DNA of 64,000 nt from Spirochaetota bacterium. GTDB lineage: Bacteria; Spirochaetota; UBA4802; UBA5550. The notes beneath the pieces were generated by a model. The model had not been told where the DNA came from. It worked only from the letters and a program-made list of their open reading frames with translations, and made no database searches. The translations under genes and the position numbers were made by a program. This document shows, in pieces, positions 43,983 through 48,335 of this stretch. The DNA is taken from assembly GCA_963663865.1 (NCBI GenBank), contig OY760686.1:1216001-1280000 (forward strand). The letters are read 5' to 3'. Each line of letters begins with the position of its first letter. The first letter of the stretch is position 1.

Positions 43983-45476
43983 TTAAACCTTGCGTGAAAG
44001 GCAATTGTCGCAAGAACCGCATCCATGAAAATCAGATTCAAAGTATGTATGGATAAACTCTCTGCGGCATTCTCGTGTCTTTGCGTATTCTACCATTTTG
44101 ACAAGGCGTCCGGTGTCTCCCTTGAGCTTTAATTCGAGAAAATCAGTATCAATAAGCTCATCCGGGTTTTTGCCGGTAAGCCTCAGGTTGTTCTTCTCAG
44201 GTGAGCCTTCTGTAATACCGTACCTGTCGAACAGGCTAAGTACTGTCTGAAGCCTGTGGTCCGAACGGTCCCTGTATACCAGCATTTCCTGGAGATCCGA
44301 GTATGAATGCGAGACCGCTGTTTCCCCCAGGGATTTTAACAGGGTAAAGGTTTTTTTCATGAAGTCAGCGCCGGGGGTTTTCCAGCGAAGAAACTCCATC
44401 TGGACGGCAAGGTCGTCCTGGGTGTACATGAGCAGGCACGAAGATGGTTTTCCGTCCCGACCGGCGCGGCCAATTTCCTGGTAGTATGATTCCAGCGAGT
44501 CAGGTATGTCAGCATGGACAATCATTCTGATATTGTCCTTATCCACCCCCATACCAAAAGCGTTAGTGGCCAAAAGGGTCGCGTTTGAGGACTTTAAAAA
44601 ACCGGACTGGACGGATTTACGTTTGTCGGGTGCAAGCTGTCCATGGTATATGCTGTGGGGGTGCGAGCGAGCGTGAAGGAATGAGCTGAATTCTTGAATG
44701 CATTTTATAAGGGTGAAGTAGACCACCCGGTTGCCGGATTCATTCTTAAGGCGGCTCAAGATCATTTCAAACTTTTCAGACTGGTCAATCGGGTCTTCAA
44801 CCTGAAGAAAAAGATTTGGCCGGGTTATTCCGGAGTTGTACACTGCCGTGTCGGGCCCGAGCCCGGACTGTCTGATGATATCGTCCCGGACTTTTTTGGT
44901 TGCTGTTGCGGTCAGGCATACGGTGACAGGGTTGCCCGTCTGTTCACGGAAAGAGGCGATAAGGCTGTAGTCAGGCCTGAAGTCATGGCCCCAGCTGCTT
45001 ATGCAGTGCGCTTCGTCTATCGCAAGAAGGTTGACTCTGCGCTCTCCCAGGCTCTTAGTGAACTCGTTGTTGCGGAACCTTTCCGGAGAGACATAGACTA
45101 TTTTATAGCGGCCGGCCCGTATGCCTTCGTAGCGGGCGGAGCGCTGTTCCTTGCTGAGGGAGGAGTTGATGTAACAGGCATCTATCCCCCTGCCTGTGAG
45201 TTTGTCGACCTGATCCTTCATCAACGCTATTAAGGGGGATATTACCAGAGTCAGCCCGTCGAATATAAGGGCGGGCAGCTGATAGCAGAGCGATTTGCCC
45301 ATTCCTGTGGGCATGACGACAAGCGTATTTTTACCTTCCAGTACACCGGTTATTATTTCCCTCTGACTGTCACGGAAGGATGTAATCCCGAAATAGTCTG
45401 AGGCCAGCTCTTCAAGGTTCTTTTTTAGTTCCACAGGATTATTATGTACGTCAGTTTGTGTTTTTTCTTTTCTCAT
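43983..45476 (-). CDS. recQ: RecQ-family DNA helicase (short, no HRDC)
   Basis: MPTGMGKSLCYQLP, DEAHC, TATA, FGMGVDK, QEIGRAGRDG, CRR...CGSCDNC. Confidence 0.92.
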   Translation of the reverse strand: MRKEKTQTDVHNNPVELKKNLEELASDYFGITSFRDSQREIITGVLEGKNTLVVMPTGMGKSLCYQLPALIFDGLTLVISPLIALMKDQVDKLTGRGIDACYINSSLSKEQRSARYEGIRAGRYKIVYVSPERFRNNEFTKSLGERRVNLLAIDEAHCISSWGHDFRPDYSLIASFREQTGNPVTVCLTATATKKVRDDIIRQSGLGPDTAVYNSGITRPNLFLQVEDPIDQSEKFEMILSRLKNESGNRVVYFTLIKCIQEFSSFLHARSHPHSIYHGQLAPDKRKSVQSGFLKSSNATLLATNAFGMGVDKDNIRMIVHADIPDSLESYYQEIGRAGRDGKPSSCLLMYTQDDLAVQMEFLRWKTPGADFMKKTFTLLKSLGETAVSHSYSDLQEMLVYRDRSDHRLQTVLSLFDRYGITEGSPEKNNLRLTGKNPDELIDTDFLELKLKGDTGRLVKMVEYAKTRECRREFIHTYFESDFHGCGSCDNCLSRKV

Positions 45477-45669
45477 AAAACGCGGCGATTACCTCTTTGG
45501 ATTTGCCGGGGGTGTAAGTTAATTCAGCAACAATGCGACTCTTTCAGAGGGACGATTATAGTCAATCGCAATACTCCCCCGTCCGCTCTCGGTTTGCTTC
45601 AGTTATTTTATAGTAAACTTTCTACAGTAAAAATAATTTCACTGAGTGTGCCGCCTTTGCAACATATTA

Positions 45670-45729
45670 TGGAAAGGCACGGGGCTGTTTGTTATAGTAG
45701 TTGCAAAAAAAATACCGGCCGGCTATACT
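45670..45729 (+). promoter_or_regulatory. Tandem sigma70 promoters of the RRM-citrate synthase-protease operon
   Basis: TTGCAA-17-TATACT (45701-45729); upstream TGGAAA-17-TATAGT with extended TG (45670-45698). Confidence 0.6.
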
Positions 45730-45840
45730 GGACTTCCGGCTTTGGCAGTGCAGAGAGTTTCTTCATAAAAGCCCGGTCACCCCGAGGGGTGGTTGAAGTC
45801 TAATCCGCAGCAGAATATTTGGTCATTGAAGAGGGCGCTT

Positions 45841-46158
45841 ATGTGGATACTTGTAGAGAACCTTTCATCGGAATCTACTGAAGATGAAATTGCCGAGCTT
45901 TTTGATATTTACGGTGATGTTGACAGTATTACGGTGATAGCTGAAGAACCGGGTGAGGATTCCCCCGCTACGGCGCTTGTAGTGATGAGTTCGGCTGAGG
46001 ATGCAAGTTCAGCGATTGAGGCTCTTGATAAAACCGTGTTTATGGACAGAAGACTGAAAGTCCGCCGTGTCACGGCTAAAACAGCGATGAAGTTCAGGGG
46101 GGATGAGCTTTCAGCTCCAATGAGCTCGCATGGACGCGCAGGGCAGCCCGGGGTATAG
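45841..46158 (+). CDS. RRM (RNP-1) fold protein with degenerate RNP1/RNP2
   Basis: ILVENL..ESTEDEIAELFDIYGDV...AEDASSAIEALD....RRLKV; GAGGG RBS before ATG 45841. Confidence 0.8.
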   Translation: MWILVENLSSESTEDEIAELFDIYGDVDSITVIAEEPGEDSPATALVVMSSAEDASSAIEALDKTVFMDRRLKVRRVTAKTAMKFRGDELSAPMSSHGRAGQPGV

Positions 46159-46168
46159 GAGGGACGAA

Positions 46169-47542
46169 GTGGTAGAAAAGCTTATTGATCAGATCAGTTT
46201 ATTCCTTGAGACCCATAAACCCATCCCTGAAGAGATAATCCGGGCAAAGAACGTGAAGGTAGGGCTCCGGAATGAGGACGGTTCCGGGGTTCTCGCTGGA
46301 ATAACCACAAAAGGTATCGTTACAGGTTACAGGATTGAACAGGACGAAGCGGATCCTGACTTTAAAAAGAAAGTCCCGGTTGAGGGAAAGTTGACCTACT
46401 GCGGCTATGATGTGAAGGAAATCGTTGAGTCGCTCACCAGGGAGGAGCGTTTCGGATTCGAAGAGGTCGTTTTTTTGCTTCTGTCAGGCCGTCTGCCCGA
46501 GAAGTCAGAGCTCAAGATTTTTTCAAAAGAGCTGGTTAGGCGCAGAAGGCTGACAAGAGCAGAGAGAACTGTTGTTATGGAAGATGTGCCTGATTACAAT
46601 CAGATGTATGTTCTTCACAGCGCTGTATCCCATCTTGGAAGATGCGACGCTAGTTCAGATTCAGTTGAAATTATCGATGTCACCAAACAGTGCATTAACC
46701 TTATAGCTAAAATTCCAAACATCATTGCGAATGCCTGGAACGTAGTGGGTTTTTTTTCAACAGGTGACCTTAAGATTCACCGTCCGCGAAATGAGCTTTC
46801 AACTGCGGAAAACTTTCTGTACATGCTAAATGGAGTCCTTCCTACAAAGAGGGAGGCCCTGCTGTTTGACAAATTGCTTATTCTTCACGCTGAACACGGC
46901 GGAGGCAACAATTCAACATTTACTGTAAGAACTGTATCTTCAAGCGGGGCCAATACCTATATGGCGCTTGCTTCCGGAGTCGCATCTCTGAGCGGCTACC
47001 TTATGGGAGGTGCAGATGAATCTGTTGTTGATATGATTGATGAGCTCAGTTTCAGAGGCGGCAGTCCCTCCGACAGCGACATTAAGGAATATCTTCTGTC
47101 ATATATTGAACGCAAAAAAAGCCTGAGGCCTTCAGAGATGATGGGATTTGAACATGTGATACCGGGATTCGGTCACGCTGTTTACACAATTTCTGACCCG
47201 AGATCGGTTATTCTGCGCGAGATGGCTTCCTCTTACGCTGAGGAGAAGGGTTTGCTTGCAGAGCTGGATTTGTACATAAGGGTGGAGAAGATTGCAGTTC
47301 AGCTTTTGAGCGAAATGAACAGCGCTCCGGTATGTTCCAATGTTGACTTCTACTCAGGATTTCTCTACAGGCTTCTTGGGATACCCAAAGAGCTCTTTAC
47401 CCCAATCTTTGCTATGGCGAGAATGGTAGGCTGGTCTGCTCACAGAATTGAACAGCTCATTCAGGCAAAGATTATCAGGCCCGCGTATATATCATCGTCT
47501 GATTCAGAAAATGAGTTTGTACCGATGGCTGACAGGGGATAA
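46169..47542 (+). CDS. Citrate synthase family protein lacking the GPxHGGAN catalytic His
   Basis: GLRNEDGSGVL, GKLTYCGYD, HAEHGGGNNSTF, GFGHAVY..DPR, NVDFYSG, ARMVGW, IRP; GTG start after AGGAGG. Confidence 0.9.
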   Translation: MVEKLIDQISLFLETHKPIPEEIIRAKNVKVGLRNEDGSGVLAGITTKGIVTGYRIEQDEADPDFKKKVPVEGKLTYCGYDVKEIVESLTREERFGFEEVVFLLLSGRLPEKSELKIFSKELVRRRRLTRAERTVVMEDVPDYNQMYVLHSAVSHLGRCDASSDSVEIIDVTKQCINLIAKIPNIIANAWNVVGFFSTGDLKIHRPRNELSTAENFLYMLNGVLPTKREALLFDKLLILHAEHGGGNNSTFTVRTVSSSGANTYMALASGVASLSGYLMGGADESVVDMIDELSFRGGSPSDSDIKEYLLSYIERKKSLRPSEMMGFEHVIPGFGHAVYTISDPRSVILREMASSYAEEKGLLAELDLYIRVEKIAVQLLSEMNSAPVCSNVDFYSGFLYRLLGIPKELFTPIFAMARMVGWSAHRIEQLIQAKIIRPAYISSSDSENEFVPMADRG

Positions 47543-47543
47543 G

Positions 47544-48335
47544 ATGAATCAGGACCAGGTTGTTCAGAATTTACTGCTTCTTGACAGTAAAGTTCCGGAT
47601 TTTATAGTAACGTTTACAGGAAAAAACAGCGACAGGGTTGACGGGCTCTATAAGCCCGATAGCTGTGAAATCATCATCCACAATAAAAACCATGAAACCG
47701 ACAATGCGCTCATGTACACCGCCATTCATGAATTCGCTCATCATGTTCAGTTTACCGGCTCAGCGAAGCCGGTAACATCACGGGCGCATACGACTGATTT
47801 CTGGAATACATTTCACAGGCTTCTCGAAAGGGCTGAAGAGCTCGGGATTTACACCAATGTGTTCGAGAGCGAAGAGGAGTTTATCGTTTTGACGAAGCAG
47901 ATAAAACAGAATTATCTGCACGAGAACGGCCGGATGATGAAAGAGATGGCCTCCATACTCTTTAAAGCATTTGAGCTCTGTTCCCGCTTCCATGTTTCAT
48001 TCGATGACTACATGGACCGGGTTATCGGACTTCACAGGTCAACAGCAAGAACAATTTTGAAGATGCAGACAATGGATATTGACCCGAGCATTGGATTCGA
48101 GAACATGAAGGTGGTGGCATCTGTTAAAGACGAGACAGTAAGGGCTGAAGTTGAAAAGGCATTTTTGAAGGGCAGCAGCCCGGATATGGTGAAGGCGATG
48201 CTTGCTGGCAGAAAACCTGAGAACAGATTGGACTACCTTCTGGAAGAAAAGGAGCGGCTTGAAAAAATGCTTGAATCAGTCACGGTCAGACTGGCAAAAG
48301 TTGAGCGAGAGATAGAAAATGAAAAATACGTGTGA
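47544..48335 (+). CDS. SprT/WLM-like zinc metalloprotease with helical C-terminal domain
   Basis: TAIHEFAHH...RAHTTDFW; ATG one nt after the upstream stop. Confidence 0.75.
   Translation: MNQDQVVQNLLLLDSKVPDFIVTFTGKNSDRVDGLYKPDSCEIIIHNKNHETDNALMYTAIHEFAHHVQFTGSAKPVTSRAHTTDFWNTFHRLLERAEELGIYTNVFESEEEFIVLTKQIKQNYLHENGRMMKEMASILFKAFELCSRFHVSFDDYMDRVIGLHRSTARTILKMQTMDIDPSIGFENMKVVASVKDETVRAEVEKAFLKGSSPDMVKAMLAGRKPENRLDYLLEEKERLEKMLESVTVRLAKVEREIENEKYV

Follow-up and report, generated by a model that had tools for sequence, protein, structure and literature searches.

A citrate synthase paralogue with Met at the acetyl-CoA-activating His site, encoded between an RRM-fold gene and a SprT-like protease gene in a spirochaete

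Substitutions of the acetyl-coenzyme A (acetyl-CoA)-activating His lower citrate synthase (CS) activity by orders of magnitude. The enzyme is among the best studied, and natural family members that lack this residue are of interest. One 2024 preprint describes hydrogen bonds from the acetyl group of acetyl-CoA to His274 and Asp375 and places the CoA-binding loops of the enzyme at residues 314-321 and 365-369 (bioRxiv 10.1101/2024.11.06.622199). A function apart from catalysis is described, in the accessible part of the source, for CitA of Caulobacter crescentus, which has a cell-cycle role independent of catalysis and whose H303A and H303W variants are inactive yet keep cell-cycle control (PMC7083601). 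Here we analyze a citrate synthase paralogue, hereafter CS', found in a window of 64,000 nucleotides of a Spirochaetota bacterium (GCA_963663865.1, contig OY760686.1, positions 1,216,001 to 1,280,000; all coordinates below are those of the window). Its gene lies between one for a protein with an RNA recognition motif (RRM) fold and one for a protein with an HExxH motif, the third gene. From sequence comparisons we read CS' as a catalytically impaired ligand-binding paralogue that has the RRM-fold protein as partner, with the protease gene next to them as an independent element, and we give this reading a probability of roughly 0.45.

CS' is encoded at 46169..47542 on the + strand by an open reading frame (ORF) of 457 amino acids (aa) with a GTG start. 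It matches Pfam Citrate_synt PF00285 at 339.6 bits (cut-off 27) and the NCBIfam model NF010635 of the PRK14032 subfamily at 438 bits, narrowly above the cut-off of 426. Alignment to the T. thermophilus citrate synthase (1iom) places a Met of CS' at the His of G-P-R-H-G-G-A-N-E, in a loop that reads S-G-Y-L-M-G-G-A-D-E versus the canonical S-G-H-L-H-G-G-A-N-E. In our alignment A5 this Met279 column is His in 34 of the 35 rows outside group A and the relative G088, the sole exception being P0093 (Tyr), itself a member of the variant clade described below. The initial annotation had called the synthase His-less, and this is half right because only one of the two catalytic His residues is lost: the acetyl-CoA-activating His has become Met, and the second catalytic His and the Asp are kept in GFGH336AVY and NVD393FYS. 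Both H336 and D393 are invariant columns in A5, as are H243, R345, R418 and R437. In pig numbering, the Met279 site presumably corresponds to His274, H336 to His320 and D393 to Asp375, and by motif we take H243, R345, R418 and R437 to be pig His238, Arg329, Arg401 and Arg421, which bind oxaloacetate or citrate. Across 120 near-invariant columns CS' departs from the canonical consensus at five (L12F, D17K, N142D, H279M and G329H). A 7-residue insertion with an E-H motif precedes GFGH, and CS' and two metagenomic members have in common both the insertion and a new motif, G-F/V-E-H-x-x-P-G-F-G-H; the E-H motif lies in the loop that binds CoA in studied citrate synthases.

CS' is, as far as these comparisons indicate, constrained and not decaying, because 115 of the 120 near-invariant columns, the GxxH His and the Asp are kept and a derived motif is shared. 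It is hardly credible that CS' and the RRM gene are redundant, functionless duplicates heading for loss. Such a fate would fit the longer branches than those of canonical copies, the loss of canonical residues in both proteins and a patchy distribution that includes absence from genus g7. Against it, besides the retained columns, frames are intact in every member seen, derived motifs are shared across lineages just 56% identical, and a 99%-identical twin of CS' differs at only 7 of 470 residues.

The question of a second, canonical citrate synthase, raised by the initial annotation, has a positive answer: one is encoded elsewhere in the genome, in the same subfamily, with the loop S-G-H-L-H-G-G-A-N-E and 55% identity to CS' (252/457). 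Among the relatives' citrate synthase loci from the order, 28 of 29 have H-G-G-A-N, and the remaining one, on contig 5 of G088, has H-T-G-S-D-E and GFDH. The 120 nearest proteins in a collection of 5.8 billion comprise 108 with HGGAN(E/K) and 12 with a remodelled loop, in which the His position is Met in three, Tyr in one, Arg in one and His in seven. These loops are MGGADE (the 99% twin), MSRATE (P0002), MGKATE (P0003), HTGSDE (P0004), HFGSDQ in three proteins, and HFGSDL, HSGADR, HTGAEQ, YYGSDQ and R-H-G-S-N-Q in one protein each. Two more genomes of the same family carry variant loops, HFGSDQ in G074 and LSGSEQ in G079, the latter with Leu at the His position, and each remodelled or variant sequence with motifs compared retains the GxxH His and the Asp of N/I-V/I-D.

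In a quick maximum-likelihood tree, ten variant sequences stand on one side of a branch versus 23 canonical ones on the other, with a Shimodaira-Hasegawa-like approximate likelihood ratio test (SH-aLRT) value of 97, and they form three sub-lineages: the window with P0002 and P0003; G088 alone; and P0093, G079, G074, P0106, P0016 and P0069. The approximately unbiased (AU) test is compatible with monophyly of the first four variant members found (p = 0.27), and the CS' branch is longer than those of the canonical copies. Canonical and variant enzymes coexist in the window's genome (G000), G088, G074 and G079. In a sample of 401 genomes from the phylum, PRK14032-type matches (E <= 1e-150) came from just three families, all in the window's order, and among the genomes searched all variant members of known genome belong to family f1. 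CS' is thereby placed, on sequence grounds, in a small variant clade with a remodelled H-G-G-A-N-E loop. The catalytic His position, which is Met, Tyr, Leu, Arg or His across members, looks like a single site of relaxed constraint, because chemically unlike residues or His occupy it.

Around the canonical copies we also observed a SpoIIE/PP2C-type phosphatase gene, which in the window's genome (L001:320-1273) immediately precedes the canonical citrate synthase gene and which recurs, at 49-67% identity, at 18 of 31 other canonical loci, forming a conserved phosphatase-citrate synthase pair; the variant CS' of G088 is preceded by a different phosphatase, of the cyclic-nucleotide (cNMP)-binding SpoIIE type. 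Families f2 and f3 have full-length citrate synthase homologues 41-45% identical to CS' (e.g., G011:C26 and G005:C27), a group that stands in place of the ~52-59% group.

The kept residues could also mean that CS' has remained an enzyme but has changed its chemistry or its substrate, acting on another acyl-CoA, as a citryl-CoA-type lyase, as a thioesterase or in a reaction that needs no enolate stabilization by the lost His, with the RRM protein as an accessory subunit, an explanation that we regard as unlikely. Its main argument is the retention of the His320 and Asp375 equivalents in every variant sequence compared; the alteration of only five near-invariant columns and the conserved E-H insertion in the CoA-binding loop speak for it as well, and citryl-CoA lyase models match CS' weakly (NF004864, 84.3 bits). 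However, this score is far under the cut-off (84.3 versus 261), the lost His has turned into Met, Tyr, Leu or Arg or was kept, which points to relaxed constraint and to no defined new catalytic residue, and the neighborhood genes at the window, G088, the metagenomic loci, G074 and G079 point to no pathway.

The RRM-fold protein is encoded at 45841..46158 on the + strand (ORF of 105 aa). It matches PF00076 RRM_1 at 49.5 bits (E 4e-13, cut-off 20.7) and NF058537 Rbp_regulator at 46.3 bits, below the cut-off of 100. Its ribonucleoprotein motifs read ILVENL (RNP2) and PATALVVM (RNP1) versus IYVGNL and KGFGFVEM in the genome's two other RRM proteins, and all three RNP aromatics (RNP2 position 2, RNP1 positions 3 and 5) are gone; in the G088 counterpart, with IFVGNL and RGVGLVTM, both RNP1 aromatics are gone. 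The isoelectric point of the domain is 4.05 versus 5.7-6.7 for canonical RRMs, helix 1 is acidic (STEDEIAELFD), and the alpha2-beta4 loop, KTVFMD, has no Arg at -2. An AlphaFold2 (AF2) model with a predicted local distance difference test (pLDDT) score of 77.8 shows a beta-alpha-beta-beta-alpha-beta arrangement and a C-terminal helix at residues 79-88. The best Foldseek match of this model is 7qzp, with a root-mean-square deviation (rmsd) of 1.7 A over 78 residues and a target-normalized template modelling (TM) score of 0.91, and its matches include the protein-contact RRMs 2peh, 3dxb, 1hl6 and 3lqv. The protein may reasonably be taken as RNA-blind. The proposal that two of the three proteins lack their canonical functional residues and are nevertheless conserved thus holds, for the RNP aromatics of this protein and the His of CS'. 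A word-seeded homologue search with the RRM protein returned only itself, and in an exhaustive profile search with the two CS'-linked RRMs the top 150 matches were mostly multi-RRM proteins, the single-domain standouts being the two queries only.

The third gene occupies 47544..48335 on the + strand and encodes 263 aa with the motif HEFAHH. Profile scans placed the protein in no curated family above threshold; PF10263 SprT-like scored 14.7 bits, below its cut-off of 25.6. Across 28 orthologues the sub-threshold Pfam matches were DUF6782 in 27, SprT-like in 23 (at E <= 0.1, best 1.3e-5) and Peptidase_M78 in 11, and the HExxH residues H62, E63, H66 and H67 are invariant. Its AF2 model (pLDDT 89.6) aligned best, in VIA-align, with Spartan (6mdx; Z 11.3, rmsd 2.5 A over 99 residues) and next with Wss1 (5xbn; Z 9.5), and Foldseek gave nothing at E <= 0.001. 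Residues 130-223 resemble ParB, Spo0J and KorB (Z 7.3, 7.2 and 6.3), similarities that in helical folds can still be due to chance. In the protein an N-terminal SprT/Spartan/Wss1-like zincin is followed by a ParB/Spo0J-like helical domain in the middle and, at the C-terminal end, by a long helix; the SprT-like protease label of the initial annotation is confirmed at fold level, and the Atlas cluster name is likewise 'putative SprT-like domain-containing protein'. Because the modelled Spartan/Wss1-like core is joined to a ParB-like domain, we consider it a candidate bacterial DNA-associated or DNA-protein-crosslink protease.

To place the three genes in context, we compared their neighborhoods across relatives. 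The third gene is present in 84 of the 122 genomes of the order, and by coordinate comparison a citrate synthase lies within 5 kb of it in just two of the 84, the window's genome and G088; in four genomes a canonical copy lies 22-29 kb away on the same contig, and none of the 29 relatives' loci has a citrate synthase or RRM gene within 1.5 kb. Screening of 31 citrate synthase loci found an RRM gene upstream only at the variant copies of the window and G088. At the G088 locus, RRM and CS' come first, then cyclophilin, then a small gene and an alpha/beta hydrolase encoded on the opposite strand, and last the HExxH gene, 2.5 kb downstream of the RRM-CS' pair. Three metagenome contigs (L073, L074 and L091) carry a Met-type CS' followed by the HExxH gene (after 19 nt in L073 and 15 nt in L091); upstream of this CS' is a sigma-factor-like ORF instead of an RRM gene, both outer flanks differ from those of the window, and the proteins are 56% (CS') and 62% (protease) identical to those of the window. 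The variant copies of G074 and G079 have neither an RRM nor an HExxH neighbor in the available sequence around them. In the third-gene tree, the three CS'-linked genes and genus g7, which has the third gene and no CS', form one 5-member clade (SH-aLRT 99).

The three genes as a set occur only in the window, each pairwise link recurring once, so the triad is not a recurring unit and the synteny looked for in relatives is absent. Shared descent is a sufficient explanation of the neighborhood, because all linked cases fall in one small sub-clade. That the three proteins nevertheless form a metabolite-sensing module, with CS' as sensor of oxaloacetate, citrate or acyl-CoA, the RRM protein as adaptor and the SprT-like protease as output, seems to us distinctly improbable. 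The main argument for it is the tight CS'-protease spacing in two lineages with different outer flanks, to which the tight gene coupling in the window and the common clade of the three linked protease genes may be added; all three genes may also have been ancestral neighbors, because G088, outside the window's sub-lineage, has its RRM-CS' pair near the protease gene. On the other side stand the rarity of a nearby citrate synthase among the many genomes with the protease gene, the protease without CS' in genus g7 of the same clade, the cyclophilin and two opposite-strand genes that separate CS' from the protease in G088, the variants of G074 and G079 without either neighbor, and the fact that common descent within a small clade can explain what is shared. 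A more specific version is a long shot: CS' would be a natural pseudo-citrate-synthase that reads the oxaloacetate, citrate or acyl-CoA state and controls a DNA-bound SprT/Spartan-like protease through an RNP-less RRM, in an ancestral module broken up in some lineages. If true, it would link tricarboxylic acid (TCA) cycle status directly to DNA-protein-crosslink repair or chromosome maintenance in bacteria.

Several further observations concern these loci. The flanks of the third gene are not conserved, and a conserved neighbor was rejected, since no flanking gene cluster is shared by more than 7 of 26 loci. A short RecQ-family helicase gene (497 aa; TIGR00614 370.5 bits, cut-off 219.8) lies at 43983..45476 on the minus strand, divergent from the RRM gene as had been described; we treat it as context only and do not count it in the three-gene unit. 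As a conserved neighbor of the third gene recQ was likewise rejected, being within 2 kb only in G001 and G002 among the relatives. In these two genomes of family f2 (G001:C7 and G002:C56) a short RecQ of ~480-500 aa, encoded on the same strand, lies downstream of the HExxH gene; the remaining relatives checked have the two genes on separate contigs or at a great distance from each other. A locus search of genome contigs with the third protein gave one distant locus only; G088 has a second, distant copy of the HExxH protein at G088:C10:452215-452922 (34% identity). On two of the metagenome contigs (L073:1605-1790 and L074:1279-1480), the CS' frame stays open for ~60 codons 5' of the conserved N-terminus in a repetitive stretch rich in Ile, Phe and Ser, which gene callers took in to give proteins of 504-506 aa and which is probably non-coding repeat DNA.

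The layout of the unit agrees with its first description in every junction. The three genes are tightly packed on the same strand; the RRM stop codon TAG (46156-46158) overlaps the AGGAGG (46157-46162), with the GTG of CS' 6 nt further on, and a single nucleotide separates the TAA of CS' (47540-47542) from the ATG of the third gene at 47544. Starting CS' at an alternative ATG, 46130, would make it overlap the RRM gene by 29 nt; we prefer GTG 46169 because the N-termini of homologues align with it residue for residue. The start of the third gene is settled because 26 of 26 orthologues share the N-terminus (M/L)NQ(D/E/Q)QV. Promoter and 5' untranslated region (UTR) presumably lie between recQ and the RRM gene (45477..45840, + strand). 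The tandem promoters proposed there, at 45670-45698 and 45701-45729, each match the consensus at 9 of 12 positions, and such matches occur at chance density (seven in the region versus 5.1 +/- 2.4 in shuffles), so this proposal is not supported. Nor did the multi-stem structured leader hold up: the putative leader at 45700-45845 folds at -35.1 kcal/mol, whereas its shuffles average -40.8 (z = +1.57) and 191 of the 200 are no less stable; in an Rfam scan of 45300-46300 no family attained its gathering score, and the + strand of the leader had no match; and the region 5' of the RRM gene does not align with the corresponding region of G088, the only other genome with an RRM-CS' pair. Four sub-threshold Rfam matches (E <= 5) were set aside as chance, three being snoRNA models within coding sequence and one on the minus strand. 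The best sigma-70-like match of the region, TTGACA-16 nt-TATAGT (11/12, 47581-47608, + strand), sits within the third gene, 37 nt past its start codon.

Taken together, we favor the reading of CS' as an impaired ligand binder with an RRM partner. At the center of the locus would be CS', a rapidly evolving paralogue of the host's own PRK14032-type citrate synthase that probably no longer condenses acetyl-CoA and oxaloacetate at a useful rate, the citrate being supplied, presumably, by the canonical paralogue. With the dicarboxylate/citrate pocket apparently kept and the CoA-loop pocket reshaped, we infer a present ligand-binding role, as regulator or scaffold, for this diverged second copy. The acidic RRM-fold protein, translationally coupled upstream, would be a dedicated partner of CS' and not an RNA binder. 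The protease gene appears to be older and order-wide, and the RRM-CS' pair probably became its neighbor in the common ancestor of a small sub-clade; by position the protease may be co-transcribed with CS', and a functional link is possible.

Several points weigh against this reading. No variant sequence examined has lost the Asp or the second His, and the clade could retain some chemistry beyond binding; the new E-H motif, conserved in the CoA loop, is an argument for a new site under selection, which may be catalytic. Any loss of condensation is apparently not clade-wide, because 7 of the 12 remodelled-loop proteins keep the His, and the RRM protein seems not to be obligatory for CS', because it is absent from the metagenomic lineage and G074. 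The gaps of 1 nt in the window and 19 and 15 nt in the metagenomic lineage speak against an independent protease, and the persistence of CS'-protease adjacency through changes of both outer flanks hints modestly at selection for co-expression. Finally, the variant-clade tree comes from a quick search that left out P0022, P0050, P0076 and P0082.

Our literature search found no description of a citrate synthase-RRM pairing, of a citrate synthase pseudoenzyme variant or of spirochaete citrate synthase paralogues of such a kind, no natural family member without the acetyl-CoA-activating His, and nothing relevant on bacterial SprT-like/ParB proteins; the RRM, synthase and protease combination, which the initial annotation took to be undescribed, was not found there either. 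The variant clade may serve as a natural experiment on what the citrate synthase fold can do, be it ligand sensing, scaffolding or a different acyl-CoA chemistry, because the rest of the active site is kept, a canonical copy coexists and the same residue was lost more than once. If the RRM protein and CS' bind each other, the former would be a bacterial case of an RRM turned to protein contacts. The third gene deserves attention in its own right, its product being a widespread spirochaete protein that appears to join a Spartan/Wss1-like core to a ParB-like domain.

Each of the three proteins resembles a described system and departs from it. Like SPRTN, Wss1 and SprT-like proteases, the third protein has an HExxH zincin core followed by a putative DNA-binding domain; unlike SPRTN and Wss1, its Pfam SprT-like score is below the cut-off and its DNA-binding candidate is a ParB/Spo0J-like helical domain (Z 6.3-7.3). 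The RRM protein shares an RRM fold with degenerate RNP motifs with the U2AF homology motif (UHM) domains of SPF45 and Puf60, with Y14-Mago and with p14/SF3b14, although ordinary RNA-binding RRMs (7qzp, HuR and PABP) match its model equally well or better. The hallmark of UHM domains is an R-X-F motif after helix 2 together with an acidic helix 1, and R-X-F is absent from the alpha2-beta4 loop of the window protein.

For CS' itself, the homology modules of citryl-CoA lyase and ATP-citrate lyase show the citrate synthase fold used for chemistry other than net citrate synthesis. These modules match CS' at no more than 84 bits versus cut-offs of 193-409 and in the C-terminal half only; CS' itself has full length and falls clearly within the PRK14032 family. 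Like CitA, it is a citrate synthase protein beside another functional paralogue, and the role of CitA is catalysis-independent; CitA, for its part, is a natural, active enzyme, and its inactive variants, H303A and H303W, were made by engineering and alter the oxaloacetate-side His, whereas CS' has lost the acetyl-CoA-activating one, with no RRM or protease partner described for CitA in the available part of that report (PMC7083601). Closest of all are the PRK14032/NF010635-type enzymes, with which CS' shares a full-length match, 55% identity to the canonical paralogue, the same N-terminal extension, the HAEHGGGNNST, DPR and AR..GW..HR motifs and the His320 and Asp375 equivalents; it differs from them in its M-G-G-A-D-E loop, its 7-residue E-H insertion, its longer branch and its neighbors, the canonical copies being usually preceded by a SpoIIE-type phosphatase gene.

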